From Pseudomonadota bacterium (lineage in GTDB: Bacteria; Pseudomonadota; Gammaproteobacteria; BMS3Bbin11): a stretch of DNA of 64,000 nucleotides. The stretch is from the NCBI GenBank assembly GCA_034659075.1, contig JAYEGM010000222.1:290-64289 (forward strand). The letters are read 5' to 3'. The position numbers and the translations under genes were made by a program. The stretch's first letter is position 1. Each line of letters starts with the position of its first letter. Below are positions 4,725 through 62,541 of the stretch, piece after piece. The notes under the pieces are model-generated. The model saw nothing but the letters and a program-made list of their open reading frames with translations. It did not search any database and had not been told where the DNA came from.

Positions 4725-6500
4725 TCACTTCGCACATGCAGAGCCTATTTTTTTGAATAACTCGGTAGATTCAACAGGATGGCGTAGTGAATTCTTGAAT
4801 CCTTTTCCATCAACTTTAGAGGATTTATTATTTCCAATATTGGAATGACTAAACTTGATAAGGGCTAGAATGTCCTCAGAGAATTCAGAAATTTCATTTT
4901 CATTTAATGTGTCAACAACTACGCCATATTTGCATGAACAGCTTTGAGCAGCGTATTTTTTGAGCAGCCTTGATTCATCTTCACATGACCTTACATCGCT
5001 ATTTGATAACACTGCTAGCCGCATTTTACGTGAAAGTTTTTTCGTTGCTGTAATTGAAGAAGCAACACATTCATTGTAATCATTAATGAAATAACCTCCC
5101 CTTTCCCTATAGATTTCCGTGTATTTAATAATATTTTTTGGAAGTTTTTCTCTTTCAATCTTCGCTTTGGCATATAACTCTTTTCTTTCCTCGTGACACT
5201 TTTTATATTCTGCCTGGAAATCATGAATTGTCTTATTATTTGATGCAAGACTTACATATTTTGACGGAGGCTCTTCATTCCGACAATTCATAAAATCTTC
5301 ACCTGCTTTTTTACAAGTTAGGGAAATCAATTCAGTGTCATAACATTCTGTATATCTGGTAGCGATATATTCTTCAAGCCCATCAATCTTATCAAGCATT
5401 TTTGCTTTAGATGCATATTGATTTGGTTGTAGTTTTTTCAGGTTTACTGCATCTTCCTTCCCGCTCTTACATACATCTTCTATCAGCATGTCTGCCTGTG
5501 TCTTTTGTTTTAAGTAGAGCTCCTGGTTCTCCCTCTGAACCCTATTTTTCTCTTCTTCTATACGCCTTTTCTTTATCATTTCGAGTTCAGCCAGATATCC
5601 CTTTTTCCTCTTAGCTACAAGCTGTTCGTCTAATTCCCTCATTGCATTATTAGTTGCTTTGATATTTGCCAATGCAATACTCACTCCGGACAAATACGGC
5701 AAAATCATTTGCCGTTCAATATTGCTCATTTGATAGTCGAAAGGGGCCCCTTTAGTTCTATCAAACGCATTTTTTACATCTCTTTCACCATATGTACTAA
5801 ATGCTTCTTCCGAGTAGCCAATCTGTCCTTTCATTTGCTCTAACTGTCTCTTAAATTGGTCATCCCACAATGCAAAGCTATCTAGATTAAACTCTTTCCA
5901 GCCAGTAATATTGCACCAACGAGCAATAAGCGCCTCATCATTTTTACTAACTAAATAGGCATTCTGGCAACTTTTATTGAATCTCACCCTCAAATCCTCA
6001 GCACGTTTCTTCTCAGTGGCATAGCGACCTGGAACTTCTTCTACCACAGATATCCAGTCATGAAACCAGGCAAATGGTTTTTCAGATGTATGAGGAGGTA
6101 GTTTTAACCCTGAAACATCATGATTATTCTTAGAATATTCCTTATTATTGACCTTTCTCCTGGTAATTTCTTCTGGTGTAAAAGCAGCAGCCTTGCTACC
6201 GCTATTATTGTTGTCTATAGAAGGAATTGGGGTACTTGAAATAGTCGAATTATTTCGCCTGTAACATTTCTCATATTCTTTTCTTATAAGTGCTTCAAGT
6301 TCGATATATTTGCTACCAGCATTTTTCAGGGAGATTCCCCCAGAGTCCATGGTTTTTCCGCTTTTTGCATCATCTCTACCCATCTGACAACCCTGCTTAA
6401 TCAACATATTATGTTGATTAAGCACCTCTGCAGCATTTGAGTCTGAAATCATAATGGGAACAAAAAGTAATATTGCAAAAAAAGAAACTGCAATTTTCAT
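4725..6500 (-). CDS. Hypothetical secreted cysteine-rich coiled-coil protein (signal peptide; K/E-rich; recurring [E/T]Y-x-[EK]-C motifs)
   Basis: 591 aa uninterrupted ORF with N-terminal signal peptide MKIAVSFFAILLFVPIMISDSNA; coding region roughly 35% GC against about 48% in flanks; no recognisable catalytic motifs. Confidence 0.7.
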   Translation of the reverse strand: MKIAVSFFAILLFVPIMISDSNAAEVLNQHNMLIKQGCQMGRDDAKSGKTMDSGGISLKNAGSKYIELEALIRKEYEKCYRRNNSTISSTPIPSIDNNNSGSKAAAFTPEEITRRKVNNKEYSKNNHDVSGLKLPPHTSEKPFAWFHDWISVVEEVPGRYATEKKRAEDLRVRFNKSCQNAYLVSKNDEALIARWCNITGWKEFNLDSFALWDDQFKRQLEQMKGQIGYSEEAFSTYGERDVKNAFDRTKGAPFDYQMSNIERQMILPYLSGVSIALANIKATNNAMRELDEQLVAKRKKGYLAELEMIKKRRIEEEKNRVQRENQELYLKQKTQADMLIEDVCKSGKEDAVNLKKLQPNQYASKAKMLDKIDGLEEYIATRYTECYDTELISLTCKKAGEDFMNCRNEEPPSKYVSLASNNKTIHDFQAEYKKCHEERKELYAKAKIEREKLPKNIIKYTEIYRERGGYFINDYNECVASSITATKKLSRKMRLAVLSNSDVRSCEDESRLLKKYAAQSCSCKYGVVVDTLNENEISEFSEDILALIKFSHSNIGNNKSSKVDGKGFKNSLRHPVESTELFKKIGSACAK

Positions 6501-8467: not shown

Positions 8468-10381
8468 TTTATCTTCGTGGATAACGATGTCAGATAATTC
8501 ATACAGGCCACGCTCGTAGTCTGAGAATAAATCCTCGCCTTTACGTTGCTTTATAACTAATCGAATTTGATTACGGATATCCTCTGGGACATCCTGTGGA
8601 TTTCCAGGCAGGATTTTTGTAACCGAAAAGATTACATAGTCGCCATTTGCCAGCTGTACACTTCCTGCCGCCTTGTCATTCGCATCAGCACTGACAGAAG
8701 AACGGAATACCTCACTCAACAATGCCGCCGACAAGCCGGTATTTCCACTACGGGAAAGTTCTTTATGATTGGCTAGCGCTAAGGCTTCTGTTTCAGCAAT
8801 CAGCGCAAGTGTCTTATCTCCTGACTGCAACGTCTTTATTAACTCAGCCACCTCTTTGGCAACCAGTTCATTGCTGCGCTGTTTGAGTAACATTTGCTTT
8901 ATTTCATCAGAGACATCTGCCAGCGGCTTTTGCTGCGGCTCACGATGTTCCAGCAACCTCAAGGCAACAAGAGTATCGTCTGATGTTTCAACTACTTCAC
9001 TGTTCAGCCCTTCAAGCAGCACATCTTCTGTAAATGCAGAATCAACAAAAGGACGCTTTTCAGCTATACCCTGCCCGCCTGCTCGCGAAAACCATTCAGT
9101 GGTCGCTATTTTTAACCCCAGTGCATCTGCTGCAGGCTGTAATGTCGTCGGCTGCTCATAGACGATATTTTGCAATTCCTCTGCCATTTGGCCATAGCGT
9201 AAAGATGCCTCACGAAGTGCGTACTCTTTACTGATTTGATCCCTTACATCATCAAAACTTTTCCCTGACTCTGGTCTGGTATCATTTAATTTAATGATGT
9301 GGATTCCGAAACGGCTTTTCACCGGCCCGGACACCTCACCTTCCTGCATGGCAAAAACCTTTTCATCAAAGGCTGCATCCATTACACCTTTTTCAAAATA
9401 TCCCAGGTCGCCGCCATTTTCGGAACTTATGCTATCGACAGAAAACTTCATTGCCATTTCAGCAAAATCCTGACCATCATTCAGCTGCTTCACAAGATCA
9501 GTTACCACTTCCTCTACGCGTTTAATTTCCTCATCACTGGCATCACTCGCGAGAGCAAGTAATATATGTTGAGCCTTACGCTGCTCAGGCTGTATGTACT
9601 GGTCTTTATTCTCCTGATAATAGGTACGCAAGGCCTCTTCATCAGGCTGTATCTGCTCTGCTATACCCATCAGCGACAAAGAAATGTACTCTACCTGCAC
9701 TTCTTCCTCTGTCATGTACTGCTTTTTATTTGATTCGTAATTCTGCTTAATATCTTCTTCCTGGATTTCAACTTTATCAAGGAAACTATCAGCCGCAAGC
9801 GTCACTGATTTAAAATTTCGCTTTTCCTGCTGCAGACGTAATAAATCATCCAGTTCCGCCTCGCTGCTAATAACTGAACGCGTAAAAGCTTCCTTGATCT
9901 GGCCGACAATATTTCCCATCCTTATCTGGCTTTCAAATGCAGTGGGACTAAGGCCATTGTTACGCACTGCCTGAGAGTACAGTTCAGGTGAAAAGGAGCC
10001 ATTCATCTGGAAAGAGGGGTTGGATCTCAAAAAACTGGCGAGTTGCTGATCACCTATCTGGTAATTCTGTTTCTGTATGTCGGCAGTCACCAGGCGCTGG
10101 GTAATCATTTCATTCAAAACCTGTTGCTTGAAAGCAGCTGATTCGAAAATTTTATTATCAACCTTACCGGCAAACTGCTGCCTCAGAGCGTTTCGCTGTC
10201 GTTGCAGCTGCCTCTGGTAATCCTGGGACACCAATTCACTACCATTTATTTCGGCAACCGGTACTTTTTTCTCTGCATCGAAATATTCATTAATACCCCA
10301 TAAAGCAAAGGGCACGGAGATAAGGATTACGATCACCCAGGCAATCCAGCCCTGGGCCCTTTCACGAATTGTAGTGAGCAT
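8462..10381 (-). CDS. ppiD: Periplasmic chaperone / peptidyl-prolyl isomerase PpiD
   Basis: 639 aa; N-terminal TM anchor MLTTIRERAQGWIAWVIVILISVPFALWG; SurA-like and parvulin regions; conserved position downstream of lon-hupB. Confidence 0.9.
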   Translation of the reverse strand: MLTTIRERAQGWIAWVIVILISVPFALWGINEYFDAEKKVPVAEINGSELVSQDYQRQLQRQRNALRQQFAGKVDNKIFESAAFKQQVLNEMITQRLVTADIQKQNYQIGDQQLASFLRSNPSFQMNGSFSPELYSQAVRNNGLSPTAFESQIRMGNIVGQIKEAFTRSVISSEAELDDLLRLQQEKRNFKSVTLAADSFLDKVEIQEEDIKQNYESNKKQYMTEEEVQVEYISLSLMGIAEQIQPDEEALRTYYQENKDQYIQPEQRKAQHILLALASDASDEEIKRVEEVVTDLVKQLNDGQDFAEMAMKFSVDSISSENGGDLGYFEKGVMDAAFDEKVFAMQEGEVSGPVKSRFGIHIIKLNDTRPESGKSFDDVRDQISKEYALREASLRYGQMAEELQNIVYEQPTTLQPAADALGLKIATTEWFSRAGGQGIAEKRPFVDSAFTEDVLLEGLNSEVVETSDDTLVALRLLEHREPQQKPLADVSDEIKQMLLKQRSNELVAKEVAELIKTLQSGDKTLALIAETEALALANHKELSRSGNTGLSAALLSEVFRSSVSADANDKAAGSVQLANGDYVIFSVTKILPGNPQDVPEDIRNQIRLVIKQRKGEDLFSDYERGLYELSDIVIHEDKL

Positions 10382-53988: not shown

Positions 53989-54221
53989 AATTTGTGCTCC
54001 TGCTATCAGTTGCCTCTATGTTGCTTCGCTGGAGGATTTCAGTAACCTGAAAGCCTGCCCGTTTCGTTATATATAGTGAAGCAAATCGGACTGGCAGTGG
54101 AACCGCAAAGGAATGGCAATATGATGTGTAATTATGGTGAAAAAATGGTTTTTTCACAGGGCGCTGATTTCGCCAGCATACTGATATACTGTTGCGCGCG
54201 AAATCTATGGAGCCGCTATTT

Positions 54222-54917
54222 ATGAGTAGGAAAATTGCCATCGTTGAGGATGACCCTGATCAACGCGAAAACTATGCTGATGCCATGACTATGCATGGCT
54301 TTGAAGTAACCACCTACCCAAACAGGCCTGAAGCCCTGAAGGGCTTCAAGAACGAACTGCCAGATCTGGCCATTCTGGACATCATGCTGGAAGACGAGCC
54401 GGATGGCGGGTTCGACCTGTGCCGGGAGCTGCGAAGCATGTCCAGGAACCTGCCTATTATTTTCCTGACTGCTCGCGATAATGATATTGACACCGTTTCA
54501 GGCTTGCGCCTGGATGCCTGGGATTACCTCACCAAGCCGGTAAATTTACAGTACCTGGCGGTACGCGTGTCCTCATTATTCCGTATTGTAGATACCCTGA
54601 GTGCGCGCACAGTAGACGAAGACAAGGTCTATCGACTGGGTGATTTGATGGTTGACCAGCAAAGCATGTCCATCGCCTGGAAAGGCCAGCCATTGAATCT
54701 GACACTGACAGAATACTGGCTGGTCGAATCAATGTCACGGCATCCCGGCCACGTCCGCACCTATGACCACATGATGCAGGTTACCCGGCAAAGCATGGTT
54801 GAGCGAAATACTATCAATGGCTACATCAGGAGAATTCGCAACAAGTTCAAGGCGCAGGACAGTAAGTTTGATGCCATTCAAACCGTTTTTGGCGTGGGCT
54901 ACCGCTGGAAAGCCTAG
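54222..54917 (+). CDS. OmpR-family response regulator (receiver plus winged-helix)
   Basis: IAIVEDDPDQ ... LAILDIMLEDEPDGGFDLC ... winged-helix C-terminus ...VFGVGYRW. Confidence 0.9.
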   Translation: MSRKIAIVEDDPDQRENYADAMTMHGFEVTTYPNRPEALKGFKNELPDLAILDIMLEDEPDGGFDLCRELRSMSRNLPIIFLTARDNDIDTVSGLRLDAWDYLTKPVNLQYLAVRVSSLFRIVDTLSARTVDEDKVYRLGDLMVDQQSMSIAWKGQPLNLTLTEYWLVESMSRHPGHVRTYDHMMQVTRQSMVERNTINGYIRRIRNKFKAQDSKFDAIQTVFGVGYRWKA

Positions 54918-54938: not shown

Positions 54939-57098
54939 ATGATTCGGGTAAGTATCCGCTACAAATTACTGCTGGTCGTGCTGACCCTGCTGCTGATTCC
55001 CTGGATGGGCTACCAATACGTAAGGGAAATGAAAACGTTTGCCCTGCAGGGACAGGAAGAAGCACTGTTGCTGACCGCGGGTGCCATCGCCACCGTACTG
55101 CACGACCGACCTGAACTATTTTCGTCTGAGAAAATCGTCCCTGCTACAGATAGAGAAATTGGTGATCTTCGGGTAATGAGACTTGACCATCCCTTAACGA
55201 TGGACGGTAAACTTGATGACTGGGGACGACTGGCTGAAAATGCCGGTCATTACTCCGTGCCCAGGTATTTAAAAAAGCCTGGCGGTCATGAAAAAGATCT
55301 GTCTTATAAGCATGTACTCGGCAGCTGGGGACGTTATCTGTATGCATTGTTCATCGTGCAGGACGACAAGGTCACGTACCGGGACACTAGCTATCGTCGA
55401 CTGGATAACAGCGATCATCTGCGGATTTATTTACGTAATGAAAAGGACACAATGACCCAGTTTGCTGCAGTGGCCGCTAAACCCGGCCGGATGGATGTAT
55501 ACGCTATGGATGAAGAATGGCGTTACCCGATTACCGGTGACCCAATCTACAGCATCGTCAGCTATTTCAGGCCACTGGAAAATGGCTATGCCATAGAACT
55601 TAGAATCCCGGGCAATATGGTGTCCGATGATACCCGCCTGGCGATCGCAATTGCTGATGTAGATGACGTAAAAAAACGAAAGGTGGAAACTGTACTCGGT
55701 ACTTCTACCGCCAAAAACACGACTGATCCTGGCAGAGTACGGATACCTTCCCCGGAGATTGACAGGATTCTCCGGGGCCTGGACAAACCCGGCACCAGAA
55801 TCTGGATCATTGACCAGAATAAATATGTCCGGGCTCTGGTCGGTGACCTTTCAACTCCACAGAACAGGGAAATCAAGCTCAGTGGCTCCAACATGAAGTC
55901 GCTGCAACAGTGGATGAATAAATTTCTTGGACCCGTTTTCAGGATAATACTGAATACCCCGGTGACCGAGTTTAAAGACCTGCCCGATGATACACGCACA
56001 CGAAACGAGGCTGTTATCTATCAGGTACTGGAAGGAAAACCGGCAACAGACAGGCGCGCCAGTGTTGACCAGCAGGCTGAACTGCTCATGGCAGCACACC
56101 CCATTTTAAATAATGACAAAATCATGGGTGCTGTGATTGTCGAACGCAGCAGTAATAATGTCGTCGACCTGCAAAACCAGCTGCTGCAAAACCTGATTGC
56201 TGTAACGGTGATTGTGTTCGCACTTGTGGGTGCGGCCCTGATGACCTTTGCCTGGCGACTGACCCGGCGCATTAGACGCCTCAGCAGAGCCAGCGGCCAT
56301 GCCATCAACCCGGAGGGGCGGCTACGAATGGAGCATGGGCTACCCGATACAAATGCCGGAGATGAAATCGGTGACCTGTCACGCAGTATATCGGGCATGC
56401 TGAAACGCCTGACACATTACACACGGTATCTTGAACGCATGCCAGACACCCTTGCCCATGAGCTTAACAACCCGCTAAACGTCGTCAATTCCTCACTGGA
56501 GAACCTTGGCACACAGCATCCAGATATTGCACAAAGCAAGTATATGTCACGCGCCCGAAACGGAGTAAACAGACTGGGCTCGTTACTGGCCAGCCTGACT
56601 GAAGCCGGCAACCTGGAAGAGGCGCTGGAAACCGAGCACCACGAAAAATTTAACCTCAATAAAATGCTGGCCATGCTCATCGAGGGCTACCAGGAAAGCC
56701 ACCCGGAATTCAAACAGGGCTTCATCACCCAGCTGCCCGAACATCAGGTAATCCTCGAAGGCAGCCCTGATCATATTGCGCAAATGATGGACAAACTGCT
56801 GGATAATGCAATGGACTTTTGTGCACCTCGGCAACCGGTATCATTTTCACTCAGCATCTGGCACCAACAGGCCATCATCAAGGTTATGAACATCGGCAAG
56901 ACCTTACCCGAAGGTATGGAAGAACGGCTATTCGACCCCATGATTTCACTGCGTCAATCAGGTGAATCACGCTCTCACCTGGGCATGGGATTGCACATCG
57001 TACGACTTATAGCCACAGCGCATGGCGGCACAGTAGATGCCAGGAATAATGAAGCGGGGAACGGGGTGGTGTTCGAGGTCAGACTGCCGTTGGCTTAA
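54939..57098 (+). CDS. Sensor histidine kinase with large periplasmic sensing domain (TM-periplasmic-TM-HAMP-HisKA-HATPase)
   Basis: H-box LAHELNNPLN; G-boxes ...GMGLHIV.., HGGTV; two TM segments flanking a periplasmic domain of about 360 aa. Confidence 0.9.
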   Translation: MIRVSIRYKLLLVVLTLLLIPWMGYQYVREMKTFALQGQEEALLLTAGAIATVLHDRPELFSSEKIVPATDREIGDLRVMRLDHPLTMDGKLDDWGRLAENAGHYSVPRYLKKPGGHEKDLSYKHVLGSWGRYLYALFIVQDDKVTYRDTSYRRLDNSDHLRIYLRNEKDTMTQFAAVAAKPGRMDVYAMDEEWRYPITGDPIYSIVSYFRPLENGYAIELRIPGNMVSDDTRLAIAIADVDDVKKRKVETVLGTSTAKNTTDPGRVRIPSPEIDRILRGLDKPGTRIWIIDQNKYVRALVGDLSTPQNREIKLSGSNMKSLQQWMNKFLGPVFRIILNTPVTEFKDLPDDTRTRNEAVIYQVLEGKPATDRRASVDQQAELLMAAHPILNNDKIMGAVIVERSSNNVVDLQNQLLQNLIAVTVIVFALVGAALMTFAWRLTRRIRRLSRASGHAINPEGRLRMEHGLPDTNAGDEIGDLSRSISGMLKRLTHYTRYLERMPDTLAHELNNPLNVVNSSLENLGTQHPDIAQSKYMSRARNGVNRLGSLLASLTEAGNLEEALETEHHEKFNLNKMLAMLIEGYQESHPEFKQGFITQLPEHQVILEGSPDHIAQMMDKLLDNAMDFCAPRQPVSFSLSIWHQQAIIKVMNIGKTLPEGMEERLFDPMISLRQSGESRSHLGMGLHIVRLIATAHGGTVDARNNEAGNGVVFEVRLPLA

Positions 57099-57109: not shown

Positions 57110-57526
57110 TTATTTTTTCAGGCTGCTCTGGTCCCAATGCACGGTGCAATCAAGCAGAGACAGTACTGAAATCAGGTCATTGCGGCTACCGCGACCCAGA
57201 ATTTCTACCGGACGATGGTTATCCAGATGACGGTTTTTCTGTTTGATCCAGAACATGGCCATTTGAGGATTGGTCGGATAAGTGGTTCTTAAGGCATCAC
57301 TGATATGCGCCAGAAGTGAGACCCGCTGCTGGATCTGTTCATCATCAGGGAAAGGCTTGTTCTCGCGGTGCTGGCGCAATGTACGCGTGCGCGTGCCTTC
57401 TGGAAACCCCAAAACCCGTATCTGCTGCTCTGCATCCAGTCCGAACTGGTCAAGCATACGAATTATGCCCTGTGTCTGCTGCATCTTTTTTTCCTGTAAG
57501 TCCTGATCCATAACTCTCACCCTCAA
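57110..57526 (-). CDS. DUF2384 / Xre-like antitoxin-family protein (ParS/MbcA-type toxin-binding domain), solitary
   Basis: C-terminal ...PTNPQMAMFWIKQKNRHLDNHRPVEILGRGSRNDLISVLSLLDCTVHW matches the DUF2384 consensus (..PNPALGGRRPLDLL.TE.G...V..LLGRIEHGV.); N-terminal Xre-like HTH region; no RES-domain gene adjacent. Confidence 0.6.
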   Translation of the reverse strand: MRVRVMDQDLQEKKMQQTQGIIRMLDQFGLDAEQQIRVLGFPEGTRTRTLRQHRENKPFPDDEQIQQRVSLLAHISDALRTTYPTNPQMAMFWIKQKNRHLDNHRPVEILGRGSRNDLISVLSLLDCTVHWDQSSLKK

Positions 57527-57539
57527 TAGAGCCCGAAAT

Positions 57540-57567
57540 TATACCTGACTTTATTCATCAGGTATAA
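57540..57567. promoter_or_regulatory. Palindromic operator (atacctga-N9-tcaggtat) overlapping divergent -10 boxes
   Basis: 8-bp inverted repeat 57540-47 / 57557-64; plus-strand TATAAT 57562-67 and minus-strand TATAAT 57542-37. Confidence 0.5.
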
Positions 57568-57610
57568 TCATACACATTATTTCAGGGGATATATCAGGAA
57601 TATAATTAAA

Positions 57611-57814
57611 ATGAAATGGATAGATAAACTGTCATGGCCGGTGGTGATTGTAATAACCGCCACACTGGGTCTTGCACCCTTTTCTCCACAACCTCATGTA
57701 GTCGAAAAGCTGGCTATGCTGCTCAATGGAACACTGTCCAGACCCATTGATATATTCGACCTTCTGCTGCATGGTACGCCGTGGGTTTTTCTTGGATATG
57801 GGGAAAGAAGCTAA
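57611..57814 (+). CDS. Small membrane protein (67 aa), unknown function
   Basis: One TM helix WPVVIVITATLGLAPF; divergent from the DUF2384 gene. Confidence 0.45.
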   Translation: MKWIDKLSWPVVIVITATLGLAPFSPQPHVVEKLAMLLNGTLSRPIDIFDLLLHGTPWVFLGYGERS

Positions 57815-57826
57815 ATGAAAGTATTA

Positions 57827-57877
57827 CGTTTTATGGTTTAGGTTTTACGTAAAACCTAATACCTAAAACCTAAAACA
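57827..57877. repeat. Palindromic heptamer-repeat element (22-bp perfect palindrome ttaggttttacgtaaaacctaa flanked by cctaaaa repeats)
   Basis: Read directly from the sequence; lies immediately after the stop of the 67-aa gene. Confidence 0.85.
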
Positions 57878-58083
57878 TCTGTCCTTCATCCAGCTCTTCC
57901 ATGTGACAGGTAGCATTTCTGTGAGGTTTGTCATCAGGCTTCATTTCGGCCATAGTGCACCATATTTTTTAAAATCGTGACCTTATAATCTGAAATAAAC
58001 ATCGTGTCTCAGAAAAATTGTCGAGTGCGGCTTTACATCATAATCCAGTACAGTCTGCTATCAAAATGAGATCCTGAAATTCC

Positions 58084-58860
58084 ATGTCAGTCCCACCTTC
58101 TTCTCATCTTCTAAAAATCTCAGACCTGACCGTGGCGATTGGAGATCAGATACTTTGCCGGTCATTATCTATTGACATGTCTGCAGGTGAGTCCTGGGCT
58201 ATTCTCGGTTCGAATGGTTCGGGTAAAACCACTCTATTGCTTACCCTGGCCGGCCTGCGAGATGCCCGGTCAGGGGAAATACGGCTGCAGGGGAAAAAAA
58301 TTTCATCCTACAGTCCGCGGCAACTCGCTACCCTGCGCAGCATGCTTTTTCAAAAAACAGATGATGCCTTCCCCACCATGGTTATGGAGACTGTGCTATC
58401 CGGACGCCACCCGCACATCCCCTACTGGCAAACCGAGACAATTGAGGATTTCAGAATTGCCCAACAGGCACTGGACAAGGTCGACATGTCTGGCTTTGAA
58501 GATCGTGACATCAACAGCCTTTCCGGCGGCGAACGTCAGCGTGTCTCGATTGCAGCCTGTCTGGCACAGAAATCACCAATCCGTATGTTTGATGAACCTG
58601 CCAATCACCTGGACATGAAACATCAGAATAGCATCCTGCAGTTGATCAGTGAAAACTATCAGCACCTGAATCTGGTGGTACTACAGGATATAAATCAGGC
58701 ATGGCGATATTGCAGTCATGCCTTGTTGCTGTACCCGGATGGCTCGGTCGAAACGGGCAGCATTAAAGATATGCTGGTCATTGAAAAACTTGAAGCTCTG
58801 TATGGTTGTAAGTTGAAGATTGTTCAGGATGGGAATGATCGGATATTTGTTCATTCATAG
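58084..58860 (+). CDS. ABC transporter ATP-binding protein (FecE/HmuV/BtuD-like), solitary
   Basis: Walker A GSNGSGKTT; signature LSGGERQR; Walker B MFDEP; no permease or binding-protein gene adjacent. Confidence 0.85.
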   Translation: MSVPPSSHLLKISDLTVAIGDQILCRSLSIDMSAGESWAILGSNGSGKTTLLLTLAGLRDARSGEIRLQGKKISSYSPRQLATLRSMLFQKTDDAFPTMVMETVLSGRHPHIPYWQTETIEDFRIAQQALDKVDMSGFEDRDINSLSGGERQRVSIAACLAQKSPIRMFDEPANHLDMKHQNSILQLISENYQHLNLVVLQDINQAWRYCSHALLLYPDGSVETGSIKDMLVIEKLEALYGCKLKIVQDGNDRIFVHS

Positions 58861-58969
58861 TGGGGCTAAAGTTCAGACTAAGGATAAAAGATAAAACCGT
58901 CATTCCGGCATGCTTTTAGCCGGAATCCATCAAATTAAAAAAACTGGATTTGCTTTCCCCCTTTCCTCC

Positions 58970-59518
58970 TTAGCCCTTAGTCTTATCCGTTGACCTCCCA
59001 TCCCCTTCGTCTACCTCCACCAAAATCCTTCGCCACTGCTCAAGCTTCTCATCAAAACGCATCGCCGCATATGCCGGGCTGGTAGAAGGCAGCTTTTGAT
59101 AACGCAGCTCGCAAGAATAAATCTCTTTCTGGCAGAGAACATGTTTTTTATATAATCGCTCAGCAGTACCGCCATTAAAGTAGACACATCTAATCGAGCG
59201 ATGAGCAGAAAATAATCGGACAAAATCATTCGCCTGCTCAGTAGCAGTCTCGATGCTCGAATCCAGACTGCCAACCCTATTGCAGGTTTTCAATACATCC
59301 CAGACAGCCAGGCCACAGTCCGTAAGCCTTGTACAACGTTCATCATAGTCGCTGCCCCGTTCGATATCGAGCAGCTCTTGCATAATCGGCCAGAACGCAT
59401 TTCTGGGGTGCGCATAGTATTGCTGCTGTCGTAAAGAAGCCACGCCCGGCATGGATCCCAGAATCAGAACTCTGCAATTTTCCTGCACCACAGGATCAAA
59501 GCTTCTTAAAAGGGCCAT
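58970..59518 (-). CDS. UDG-superfamily DNA glycosylase (DNA-deoxyinosine / hypoxanthine glycosylase-like)
   Basis: RVLILGSMPGVASL motif and overall UDG-fold pattern; start set at MALLRSF. Confidence 0.65.
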   Translation of the reverse strand: MALLRSFDPVVQENCRVLILGSMPGVASLRQQQYYAHPRNAFWPIMQELLDIERGSDYDERCTRLTDCGLAVWDVLKTCNRVGSLDSSIETATEQANDFVRLFSAHRSIRCVYFNGGTAERLYKKHVLCQKEIYSCELRYQKLPSTSPAYAAMRFDEKLEQWRRILVEVDEGDGRSTDKTKG

Positions 59519-60684
59519 ACATCTCTTGCCAGGCGCAAGCCGGCAAACATATGGCGTTTTTCCGGCTGGTAGAAGTTGCGAAATGATGGGTGGCAAACAG
59601 TCTTTCCTGAAAACCGACTATTACCTTTTAATGTGTAATGATTGCCATCAAACCAGGGACTGGAATAGCGTTCATACGGGAAGGCCTTGAAGCCCGGATA
59701 GGGGAAAAAGGTATTGGCGCACCATTCCCACACTTCTCCGGTCGACTTATTTAACACAGGATCTGATGCCACTGCAGCCTCCCATTCGTGTTCATGCGGT
59801 AATCGGCAAGCCGCATAACGTGCAAAAGCATCCGCTTCATACCAGCTAATTCCCGAAACAGCTGCATCGGGATCAATATCTACAACCCCCTCTGGGCTTA
59901 TTTCACACCAGTTTTCTGATTTATCACGCAGCCAGAATTCAGGTGCATGTAATTGTCTCTCTGTTATCCATTGCCAGCCAGCCCTGCTCCAGAAACTTTT
60001 TTGCTGATAACCGGCGGCCTGCATAAAACCCAGATACTCGGCATTACTGACCGGTTTCTCAGCAAGTTGATAAGCAGCAAGCTCTGTTTCATGTACCGGT
60101 TGTTCATTATCACAGGCCAGAACATCATTGGAGCCGACTTCGTATCTACCTTGTTCAAACGATGCTTCTGGCAACGCGGGTCCGTGTGCATCAAAGCTTT
60201 TAACCATTGAATTTGTTACAGATGCCGTTCCAAGGGCTTTCTGATGCAGTGCCATCTGCATCGTTTCCAGGTGCTGTTCGCCGTGCTGGAGCAGAAACCA
60301 GCCAATATAATCATATTCCAGCAGCGGATGCTTCTGTTGCCTGGATAGTTTTTCGAATAACAGGACGGACAATAAATTTTCCGCATCAGAAAAGTCATGC
60401 TGCAGACGTGAAAAGTCAGTCATCCCCGGCAACTCACCGCGTTCAGACTTAGCTATCATTTCCGGAAAATAACAGTGATGAAAACCTGCAGTTCTGCTGT
60501 TGTCATTCAGCAAAACTTCGCGCAACCAGTACTGCTCGATAAACGCAACATGTGCAAGATGCCAGCCCAACTGACTGAGATCAGCGTGATACTGATTACG
60601 CAATTCTGCCTCAGAACAGGTGGAAAACTGTTTTATCAGCCGATCATGTAGAGATGAAAGACCCTCTGCAACTGATGTATTCAC
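59506..60684 (-). CDS. egtB: Ergothioneine biosynthesis sulfoxide synthase EgtB-like (DinB_2 plus FGE-sulfatase domains)
   Basis: N-terminal DinB-like HxxxE region (WHLAHVAFIEQYW); C-terminal FGE-like domain (...GEVWEWC...); 4-nt overlap with upstream egtC; egtD adjacent. Confidence 0.75.
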   Translation of the reverse strand: MNTSVAEGLSSLHDRLIKQFSTCSEAELRNQYHADLSQLGWHLAHVAFIEQYWLREVLLNDNSRTAGFHHCYFPEMIAKSERGELPGMTDFSRLQHDFSDAENLLSVLLFEKLSRQQKHPLLEYDYIGWFLLQHGEQHLETMQMALHQKALGTASVTNSMVKSFDAHGPALPEASFEQGRYEVGSNDVLACDNEQPVHETELAAYQLAEKPVSNAEYLGFMQAAGYQQKSFWSRAGWQWITERQLHAPEFWLRDKSENWCEISPEGVVDIDPDAAVSGISWYEADAFARYAACRLPHEHEWEAAVASDPVLNKSTGEVWEWCANTFFPYPGFKAFPYERYSSPWFDGNHYTLKGNSRFSGKTVCHPSFRNFYQPEKRHMFAGLRLARDVWPF

Positions 60685-61460
60685 AAATGGATTTCTACCG
60701 GCACATTACCGCCGTCAAAAACCATTAATGACTGCGGTGTCACTTCTGTCCAGTCCGCATCATCCGTCAACGGCTCAGAGGCAACCAGACAGGCGCCGGG
60801 AAATGGCGGGGGATTTAGTGAGTAATATAACGAAGGACAGTTTCCATTGATTGCACAGCGCATCGCCCAGATTTTCCCGGGGACAGCAATGATTATATTT
60901 AACAGACCGCGTTCATCTTTTAACCAGGCTTTTAATCGCGAAACCATTTCAATCAATGCCGCAGCCGGGTCATTTGTATTCATTTCCCACATGATTTGCT
61001 TAAACAGGATGAACAAGTGCTCTGAATCGGTATTGCCTTCGATAAAATCCTCGAATTCAGGTTTAAATTCTCGCCGTAAACATGAACGAAGTGTGCGTGA
61101 AAATTTATTAATATAACCGTTATGCATGAACTGAAATTTTTCATCCGCATAAGGCATGGTATTGGCAAGATTGATCGGGATATTTGTCGTGGCACTGCGC
61201 ACAACAGCTACCCAGGTATCAGATTTCAACCCTCGGCCTAACTCAGGCAAATTCGGATCGGTCCAGATAGGCATGGTCTGTCGATATCGTAATGGCTGAC
61301 CCATCTGATCAAACCAGCCAAAGCCGTAGCCATCAGCATTCAGCCTGGCTTCTATCATTTCTCTGGGAGCCCATGACTGCTTCACCAGGCTATGCTCCGG
61401 CTTGAGCAGCATTTCTTCTAGCCGCAAAGCAGGACCAATATAAGCTGCAAGTCTGCACAT
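60681..61460 (-). CDS. egtC: Class-II glutamine amidotransferase EgtC-like amidohydrolase
   Basis: N-terminal MCRLAAYIG (Ntn Cys nucleophile); ...DGYGFGWFD; about 259 aa, typical of EgtC. Confidence 0.75.
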   Translation of the reverse strand: MCRLAAYIGPALRLEEMLLKPEHSLVKQSWAPREMIEARLNADGYGFGWFDQMGQPLRYRQTMPIWTDPNLPELGRGLKSDTWVAVVRSATTNIPINLANTMPYADEKFQFMHNGYINKFSRTLRSCLRREFKPEFEDFIEGNTDSEHLFILFKQIMWEMNTNDPAAALIEMVSRLKAWLKDERGLLNIIIAVPGKIWAMRCAINGNCPSLYYSLNPPPFPGACLVASEPLTDDADWTEVTPQSLMVFDGGNVPVEIHL

Positions 61461-61536
61461 AATTCTCTCTGAAACTTTATTAGACAGTAAACTGTCACTT
61501 AGTATAATGAAAAATAATTAAAAACAAAGGAATGCT

Positions 61537-62541
61537 ATGCAAGAAGCTGTAAAAATTGACTCAAGCCGGTTTCAGTTAAACCGGCTATCACCGGAACAGC
61601 ATCTAGATTCACTGGTAGAGGACATCTACGCAGGTTTGCTGAGCCGCCCCCGCAGCTTGCCGCCAAAGTACTTCTATGATGAGCGCGGCTCTATGCTATT
61701 TGATCAGATTTGCCAGACCAATGAGTATTACCTGACGCGAGCTGAATCCGCACTTTTAAAGAAGCATGCCGATGAGATCGTCGCCACTGTAAGGCCAACG
61801 GCTATTGTTGAATACGGCAGTGGCACATCCGAAAAAACCGAGCTGCTTATTCAGGCAGCCAATCAGCATTACGACTGGTTGCATTACCTGCCGCTGGATG
61901 TCTGCGAAGAAATACTGATTGAGTCGTCGAAGCGTCTGTTAGACAGATATCCCTGGTTATCCATTGATGCATGGCATGGTGACTTTTTACATGATATGCA
62001 ACTATTCAATAATAGTCATACACGCAGCCTTTATACTTTTCTTGGCAGCTCCTTAGGTAATTTTTCATATGATGAGGCCAGCCAGTTTTTGCGCGATGTG
62101 AGAAATACAGCCTATGACGATGACTGGTTTCTGCTGGGTATTGATATGGTCAAAGATCACAGCATCCTGAATGCTGCCTATAATGACATTGAGGGATACA
62201 CAGCAGCATTTAACCTTAATCTGCTGAATGTACTGAACCAGGCACTTGATGGTAATTTTAATACTGAAAAATTCGAACACCACGCTTTTTTTGATGTTGA
62301 TAATTCCCGTGTCGAAATGCGTTTACGCTCCTGTTGCCGGCAAACCGTTATACTCCGGGATATTGATTTAAAGATAGATTTCGAGGATGGCGAACACATT
62401 ACTACGGAATACAGCCGGAAATACACAGCCGACTCGATACACCAGCTATTGACCAGCACCGGCTTCTCTCCAGAGCATATATACACGGGTGACAACAATG
62501 AATTTATGCTGATCCTTTCTCGATGTTCAAAAGCCGATTAA
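61537..62541 (+). CDS. egtD: L-histidine N-alpha-methyltransferase EgtD
   Basis: Hallmark motif LPPKYFYDERGSMLFDQI... and SAM-binding VEYGSGTSEKT; about 330 aa. Confidence 0.88.
   Translation: MQEAVKIDSSRFQLNRLSPEQHLDSLVEDIYAGLLSRPRSLPPKYFYDERGSMLFDQICQTNEYYLTRAESALLKKHADEIVATVRPTAIVEYGSGTSEKTELLIQAANQHYDWLHYLPLDVCEEILIESSKRLLDRYPWLSIDAWHGDFLHDMQLFNNSHTRSLYTFLGSSLGNFSYDEASQFLRDVRNTAYDDDWFLLGIDMVKDHSILNAAYNDIEGYTAAFNLNLLNVLNQALDGNFNTEKFEHHAFFDVDNSRVEMRLRSCCRQTVILRDIDLKIDFEDGEHITTEYSRKYTADSIHQLLTSTGFSPEHIYTGDNNEFMLILSRCSKAD

Follow-up and report, generated by a model that had tools for sequence, protein, structure and literature searches.

The Xre-like gene and its product

The window analysed here is a 64-kb stretch of contig JAYEGM010000222.1 (positions 290 to 64,289 of the forward strand). 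At 57110..57511 on its minus strand lies a solitary gene with an Xre/DUF2384 fold, identified from its open reading frame (ORF), 58 orthologues, sub-threshold Pfam matches, a family profile and an AlphaFold (AF2) model searched with Foldseek. A convergent sensor histidine kinase gene lies downstream, as the first-pass annotation of this DNA had described, and its stop at 57098 is 11 nt from that of the Xre-like gene. Upstream, a divergent ORF of 67 aa is followed by an ABC ATPase gene, and a palindrome lies between the two divergent genes. The Xre-like gene belongs to a clade without adjacent RES toxins, and may encode a stand-alone regulator.

The ORF spans 57110-57526 (minus strand) and had been read as a gene of 138 aa; the ORF is real, but the length should be corrected to 133 aa, starting from the ATG at 57511. 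Nearly all of the 58 close homologues are 133 aa long, all of them are co-linear from this ATG (71-100% identity), and the same length is called in the public record of the contig (P0001, a metagenome-assembled genome of Pseudomonadota). A GAGG-type ribosome-binding site precedes the ATG. The alternative start, a TTG at 57526, has none and lies only about 5 nt from the predicted transcription start, which makes 133 aa the better call.

Searched alone, the 133-aa protein matches two Pfam domains in the right order, each 2-3 bits under its gathering threshold: PF20432 (Xre-like-HTH) at residues 16-58 (23.6 bits, cut-off 25.8) and PF09722 (Xre_MbcA_ParS_C, DUF2384) at residues 80-121 (21.6 bits, cut-off 24.5). 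For most orthologues the precomputed Pfam field is empty ('-'). The protein scores 23.5 bits against a cut-off of 90 on the NCBIfam model NF049845 ('type II RES/Xre antitoxin'), and 16.7 bits against a cut-off of 57 on TIGR02293. When 1.84 billion cluster representatives were searched with a profile built from 28 orthologues, 328 related representatives were recovered at E<=1e-3, most of them 125-140 aa long. Among 76 aligned relatives, 71 match PF09722 (best E 4.5e-13) and 21 match PF20432. Against solved structures, the family profile matches MbcA (E 6.3e-5), NatR (E 1.6e-4) and Xre of Pseudomonas putida (E 0.0095).

The AF2 model built on the 76-sequence alignment has eight helices, with a predicted local distance difference test score (pLDDT) of 90.1 and a predicted template-modelling score (pTM) of 0.80. 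It replaced a model on the shallow alignment of 28 orthologues (pLDDT 60.7), whose C-terminal half was unreliable. The eleven top Foldseek matches in the PDB are exclusively antitoxins of RES toxins, namely NatR, VPA0769, MbcA, Xre and ParS, the best being NatR with a template-modelling score (TM) of about 0.68. Because the family profile matches, the model is confident and Foldseek returns these antitoxins, we regard homology to the Xre/MbcA/ParS antitoxin fold as established. The DUF2384-type C-terminus and Xre-like N-terminus proposed in the first-pass annotation, sub-threshold when the protein is taken singly, are thus borne out by family profile and fold.

The N-terminal Xre-like helix-turn-helix region (residues 16-58; 57338..57466, minus strand) is delimited by the PF20432 match and the model helices. 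Those at residues 27-34 and 42-50 superpose on NatR and Xre, and the predicted recognition helix is the second of them, TRTLRQHRE. Its R43 is retained in 64 of the 76 family members and aligns with Arg67 of P. putida Xre. In the C-terminal DUF2384 domain (residues 80-121; 57149..57274, minus strand), W88 and P101 are invariant in all 76 relatives. Residue conservation further delimits a clade-specific C-terminal tail, LDCTVHWD (residues 120-127; 57131..57154, minus strand), of which D121, C122 and W126 are invariant in the orthologues and the 14 closest relatives; across the 76 relatives the cysteine is found in 48 and the tryptophan in 61. Beyond residue 120 the model confidence is low, which, given the conservation of the tail, would fit a segment that oligomerises or binds a partner.

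Absence of a RES partner

The Xre-like gene has no RES gene beside it in the window, its neighbours being the convergent kinase and the divergent small gene; the earlier observation that no RES-domain gene follows it therefore stands. Nor does any of 24 other mid-size ORFs of the window, which are housekeeping genes such as fur, smpB, clpP and bamE, match the RES domain at E<=1e-6. Two annotated orthologous neighbourhoods are also free of RES genes. Eight genome and eleven metagenome loci of orthologues are unannotated, and the five examined keep the same gene order.

More distant members of the family give the same picture. No RES gene is present in seven annotated contexts of relatives at 23-35% identity, where the neighbours include MsrB, an alpha/beta hydrolase, HAD hydrolases, a pseudouridine synthase, an epimerase and a metallo-beta-lactamase-fold protein. 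A metagenome scan with a 14-sequence alignment yielded 69 further relatives and 21 co-directional downstream neighbours; scanned together with four from the annotated contexts (n=25), these matched 21 Pfam families, RES not among them. Across the family, no RES partner was seen at about 95 loci examined (19 orthologue loci and 76 distant relatives). The Xre-like gene and its whole clade are solitary, without an adjacent RES toxin.

COG5642 antitoxins normally share an operon with RES genes; they are mobile and enriched on plasmids, and certain lineages have expanded sets of them (PMC2701414). The Xre-like clade contrasts with these canonical antitoxins because it lacks RES neighbours. The mobile, patchy, plasmid-type distribution typical of RES-Xre systems is not seen either, the gene being single-copy, in fixed order and of normal GC content. 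The locus lacks what defines a RES-Xre toxin-antitoxin system: an adjacent toxin, mobility and scores above the curated antitoxin cut-offs. In the literature that we searched, no DUF2384 clade without RES is described.

Conservation and gene order

Orthologues were found only in uncultured Gammaproteobacteria labelled Arenicellales in GTDB genomes, where the gene is single-copy. It occupies a conserved order: egtD, egtC, egtB, UDG, the ABC ATPase and a variable spacer, then the Xre-like gene, convergent with the kinase and response regulator, followed by dapA, bamC and purL. Among 28 orthologues, 62 of the 133 columns are invariant. The protein of the window shares 71% identity with that of locus L001, 82% with L004 and 77% with L012, a level equal to that of DapA, EgtC and the kinase and above that of the ABC ATPase, UDG, EgtB and BamC. 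Defence-system models gave no match at the locus. The gene is thus under strong purifying selection at a fixed chromosomal position, and behaves as a core cellular gene, unlike an addiction module or a decaying remnant. We conclude that this Arenicellales-like gammaproteobacterial lineage inherits it vertically, as a single-copy core gene.

The convergent kinase (719 aa; 54939..57098, plus strand) scores 604.7 on TIGR03785 (cut-off 612.2) and its paired response regulator (54192-54917, plus strand) 294.3 on TIGR03787 (cut-off 335.7), both being NCBIfam models of the 'proteobacterial dedicated sortase system'. The pair is syntenic at all orthologous loci. On the other side, in the region 58084-62541, a heme/siderophore-type ABC ATPase without an adjacent permease lies beside UDG and ergothioneine-type genes, which encode an EgtB-like FGE-sulfatase/DinB protein, an EgtC-like GATase_4 protein and an EgtD-like methyltransferase. 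These are syntenic across the lineage with the ABC ATPase and UDG.

The palindrome and the predicted promoters

Upstream of the Xre-like gene, at 57538..57568, lies a perfect palindrome that we consider a putative operator. It had been described as an 8-bp inverted repeat; the repeat is real, but longer than that, with perfect 11-nt arms at 57538-57548 and 57558-57568 (11-N9-11). In the orientation of the gene, on the minus strand, it reads ATTATACCTGA-tgaataaag-TCAGGTATAAT. Its 27-nt core (<=3 mismatches) occurs once in the 64 kb, against 0.05 occurrences expected. A separate search of the window for further operator copies gave a single core match with one mismatch (9969-9989), which lies inside an ORF and is probably due to chance.

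The overlap of the repeat with -10 hexamers on both strands, also noted in the first-pass annotation, is confirmed, since each arm contains a TATAAT, one per strand. The predicted -10 of the Xre-like gene (57538..57543, minus strand) is identified by consensus only and is invariant in every orthologue; it lies in the promoter-proximal (right) arm, 24-35 nt upstream of the ATG. That of the divergent small gene (57563..57568, plus strand), also predicted from sequence, lies in the left arm.

All 19 orthologue promoters whose upstream sequence could be read contain the palindrome, even as the intergenic DNA around it diverges, and the invariant columns of the promoter alignment concentrate in TA..TGA-N9-TCAG.TATAAT. 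Most orthologues have one arm-to-arm mismatch at a constant position; the copy in the window is perfect. The left-arm TATAAT is gone from both L001, which is without the divergent small gene, and L012, which has kept it. Both retain the core TAYYYGA-N9-TCAGRTA and the inner half-site TTAC(C/T)TGA, and the inner half-sites (TACCTGA/TCAGGTA) lie outside the -10 hexamers. Because L001 and L012 keep these half-sites without the left TATAAT, the symmetry of the palindrome exceeds that of two opposed -10 boxes.

A LexA (SOS) box was considered and rejected. LexA boxes read CTGT-N8-ACAG, with invariant CTG/CAG and fixed spacing, whereas the palindrome reads CTGA-N9-TCAG, which is one base wider, and its left CTG varies (TTG in L001; CCG in L008, L027 and L031; CTT in L033).

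In L007 (~5770-5985), an element of about 210 nt that resembles a miniature inverted-repeat transposable element (MITE) is inserted in the 5' leader of the Xre-like gene, between the palindrome and the start codon, and disturbs neither. Its terminal inverted repeats read GGAACCTCTGAT(C/T)AATTC. The element is also present in L011 (~1975-2140), in the opposite orientation, between genes of the PqqD and HprK-like families, and the upstream region of L014 looks rearranged as well. We found no clear copy of the element in the window.

The divergent small gene and the history of the spacer

The divergent ORF of 67 aa (57611..57814, plus strand), which the first-pass annotation took as a small single-spanning membrane protein, is real, but comparison with relatives shows a truncated copy of a membrane protein of 75-77 aa. 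Its family is large (3468 hits) and sometimes mislabelled 'RND transporter', and neither Pfam nor NCBIfam has a matching entry. Compared with L007 and L004, the copy in the window has lost 20 nt, which frameshifts its last ~17 residues, those of the second hydrophobic helix (WVLLAIKLLRL...). P0288, which is 97% identical to the protein of the window, is intact at 75 aa.

The small gene is absent from L001-3 and L011, where the Xre-like gene and the palindrome are kept, and in L019 and L020, which sample two other lineages, it stands beside a gene for a 124-aa protein without an Xre-like neighbour. Because of these losses and of this other neighbour, a toxin-antitoxin-like pairing of the two genes is unsupported; they neither co-occur obligately nor are co-transcribed. 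At most, the small gene shares a control region with the Xre-like gene where it is present.

In L019 (4001-4600) and L020 (4001-4605), which lie outside the Arenicellales, the small gene is followed by the translationally coupled gene for the 124-aa protein, which is conserved and carries a CxxC motif (FVYNADSGLFN...CxLCxLTHG). This protein has no NCBIfam match, its precomputed Pfam field is empty ('-'), and the window does not encode it.

The ancestral arrangement of the spacer is seen in L008 and L012, with the ABC ATPase (-), PqqD (+), a gene similar to HprK-related kinase A (+; TIGR04352, 96 bits, below cut-off), the small gene (-) and the Xre-like gene (+). The PqqD/HprK-like pair has been lost in the window, L004 and L007, whereas L001-3 and L011 lost the small gene instead. 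The pair is intact in L001, L008 and L011, and probably in L012. A PqqD-family remnant of 27 codons in the window, MAEMKPDDKPHRNATCHMEELDEGQMF (57870..57953, minus strand), matches the N-terminus of the L011 PqqD and, judging from this match, marks the deletion of the pair.

Downstream of the truncated small gene lies a perfect AT-rich palindrome of 22 bp, TTAGGTTTTACGTAAAACCTAA (57838..57859). It has no second copy in the window, and may act as a terminator in both directions or as a site for a protein. AAACCTAA repeats extend from it to ~57876, and in L004 the small gene likewise has a similar sequence behind it. A search of the locus against Rfam matched no family, giving only chance miRNA-like hairpin matches at this palindrome.

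Observations in sister clades

In sister clades, 35 of 69 metagenome loci, as well as L022 (5077-5484) and L023 (5308-5727), carry a gene for a Cys-rich protein of ~150 aa on the opposite strand within ~1 kb of the Xre-like gene. It is convergent downstream in 26 loci and divergent upstream in nine, and has the motif RCVFEKAI...RFxLADREGVxC...LPHxKEIKVQxGG; examples among L035-L103 are L045 (1832-2308, minus strand) and L072 (3388-3840, minus strand). The protein matches nothing in Pfam, NCBIfam or the PDB, and a hidden Markov model built from it had no hit in the window or the Arenicellales loci.

One sister sub-clade has a conserved palindrome of its own, TATTGTA(C/T)AATA, which differs from that of the window and precedes the Xre-like gene by a fixed distance in 15 of the 64 sister-clade loci (L043, L047, L050, L052, L053, L055, L059, L061-L063, L069-L071, L083, L085). 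It lies 86-149 nt upstream of the match, and all 15 occurrences in 0.5 Mb are at that spot. A divergent gene with a Rieske domain lies near ten of the 15 (L043, L047, L050, L052, L059, L061, L063, L071, L083 and, less certainly, L085); the Rieske cluster was called in 13 loci overall. The half-site motif of the window is not shared by the distant relatives.

A possible stand-alone regulator

We consider it moderately probable that the Xre-like protein is a stand-alone, self-repressing regulator derived from an Xre/DUF2384 antitoxin fold, outside any RES operon. In such a mechanism, two or more copies would bind the 11-N9-11 palindrome through the N-terminal helix-turn-helix. The right arm would hold the -10 of the Xre-like gene itself and the left arm that of the divergent small gene, and binding would repress transcription of the Xre-like gene and, where it is present, of the small gene. 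Repression of both would then follow from binding over arms that hold both -10 boxes. True antitoxins plug their RES toxin with the DUF2384 domain, which here, along with the LDCTxxW tail, may serve oligomerisation or the sensing of a partner or signal. The homology and fold, the lack of RES neighbours, the conservation in fixed gene order and the conserved palindrome are shown; that the protein binds DNA and represses, and what its C-terminal domain does, we infer. The P. putida Xre-RES complex offers a precedent, as it represses its own promoter through an inverted repeat, and Arg67 of its Xre makes base contacts; loss of this residue abolishes repression (PMC12204516). Of the two alternatives that the first-pass annotation had offered, an orphan antitoxin turned regulator or an unconventional pair with a small membrane peptide, the former is in keeping with the RES-antitoxin fold, the missing RES partner, the purifying selection and the palindrome on the -10.

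Several points weigh against this proposal. On its own, P. putida Xre is monomeric and represses weakly, needing the RES toxin to form a DNA-binding complex (PMC12204516), so a toxin-less relative would need another route to oligomerisation. The palindrome arms are opposed TATAAT boxes, and their symmetry may partly reflect promoter architecture. A consensus promoter scan listed neither promoter, and the -35 elements are weak. With 16-20 bp between their centres, the half-sites are spaced more widely than those of classical Cro/cI-type dimers, and upstream of 64 distant relatives inverted repeats are in general no more frequent than in shuffled sequence (7.19 against 7.30, of 10). Finally, the search of this genome for RES genes covered the 64 kb of the window.

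Some of these points would also suit a protein that does not bind DNA, with the palindrome being promoter architecture or the site of another regulator, and with the DUF2384 domain and tail contacting a partner encoded elsewhere. We regard this as possible, if doubtful. The TATAAT boxes in both arms, the poor repression by P. putida Xre alone and the lack of excess inverted repeats in distant relatives agree with it, as does a tail that is strongly conserved yet of low model confidence, as expected of a partner-binding segment. Against it, the inner half-sites outside the -10 hexamers persist in L001 and L012 despite the lost left hexamer, and the helix-turn-helix is conserved together with the Arg67-equivalent residue. 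The Cys-rich gene, present within 1 kb at roughly half of the loci in sister clades, could point to such a partner, but no gene of this kind occurs in the window or the Arenicellales loci. A related idea, which we think unlikely, is that the clade kept its C-terminal domain for a non-RES partner bound through the LDCTxxW tail, forming a new regulator-partner module. Candidates for that partner are the Cys-rich protein in the sister clades and, in the Arenicellales, a protein encoded elsewhere or a neighbouring signalling protein. It is decidedly unlikely that the protein acts in trans as the antitoxin of a RES toxin encoded elsewhere in the genome. It shares the fold of RES antitoxins and retains a conserved toxin-binding domain, and the genome was inspected over 64 kb only; nevertheless, no RES domain was found in the window and no adjacent RES gene at the ~95 loci of the clade, and the protein falls far short of the NCBIfam antitoxin cut-off (23.5 bits against 90). 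COG5642 antitoxins, moreover, are normally mobile, plasmid-enriched members of RES operons (PMC2701414), whereas this gene is single-copy, in fixed order and as conserved as housekeeping genes.

The remaining two explanations turn on the neighbouring genes. The protein could be an accessory regulator of the adjacent two-component system, acting through convergent transcriptional interference or protein contact, and the convergent arrangement is indeed found at every orthologous locus, with a gap of 11-56 nt and with a kinase and response regulator as conserved as the Xre-like gene. This linkage carries little information because the whole 12-kb neighbourhood (egt genes, UDG, ABC ATPase, dapA, bamC, purL) keeps its order, and the distant relatives are not adjacent to such kinases; we judge the idea very unlikely. 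The unconventional toxin-antitoxin-like pair with the small membrane protein is so improbable that it barely enters the balance, even though the two genes are adjacent, have a palindromic control region in common at most orthologous loci, and small hydrophobic peptides can be toxic. The small gene was lost in two lineages that kept the Xre-like gene and palindrome (L001-3 and L011), is frameshift-truncated in the window, and is divergent and hence not co-transcribed. Its family is far wider than that of the Xre-like gene (3468 hits against ~58 orthologues) and has the 124-aa protein for a neighbour in L019/L020, and no small gene of this kind stands beside the seven distant relatives of the Xre-like gene that are annotated.

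Relation to known systems

The best structural match among known proteins is NatR of the NatR-NatT system of Pseudomonas aeruginosa (PDB 8qnl/8qnq), which matches the model with a Foldseek E of 3e-4 and a TM of 0.67-0.69 over ~115 residues and is the second-best sequence-profile match (residues 12-123). NatR is similar to the Xre-like protein in size (~128 aa) and in its order of helix-turn-helix and DUF2384 domain, and likewise belongs to a core genome (PMC11535050). It is encoded with the RES toxin NatT, whereas the Xre-like gene has no toxin neighbour; the two proteins share 16-17% identity, and the CTxxW tail of the Xre-like clade extends past the NatR end. MbcA of Mycobacterium tuberculosis (Rv1990c; PDB 6fkg), the antitoxin of the NAD+ phosphorylase MbcT, is the best profile match in the PDB, through its C-terminal domain, and has a related fold. 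It is co-transcribed with MbcT, while no toxin lies beside the Xre-like gene.

P. putida Xre (PDB 6gw6, 9r35) has the same architecture of helix-turn-helix and DUF2384 domain, but its matches to the Xre-like protein are weak (Foldseek E 0.29, besides the profile match given above). The putative operator described here differs from that of Xre-RES in being perfect, in its wider 11-N9-11 spacing and in lying over two -10 boxes, and P. putida Xre requires its RES toxin for the 4:2 DNA-binding complex (PMC12204516). Orphan antitoxins resemble the Xre-like gene in being antitoxin-type genes without a cognate toxin. A leftover of a lost toxin-antitoxin module is expected to show decay. The Xre-like gene shows no such signs, and instead represents a whole clade (328 cluster representatives) under purifying selection and at a fixed position. 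Most likely, the protein descends from, and works like, the Xre/NatR/MbcA antitoxins, and departs from this known kind only modestly.

Automatic annotation may call DUF2384/Xre-like proteins antitoxins, which the first-pass annotation did, and a clade of 328 representatives never seen next to a RES toxin calls for caution in counting such genes as toxin-antitoxin loci. The Xre-like gene would be a clean natural case of an antitoxin fold turned stand-alone regulator. Because P. putida Xre needs its toxin for the DNA-binding complex, a toxin-less relative that still regulates would, if this is true, show how such toxin dependence can be lost. The best-sampled member of the clade appears, from its sequence and conservation, to behave like a housekeeping regulator with its own conserved putative operator.

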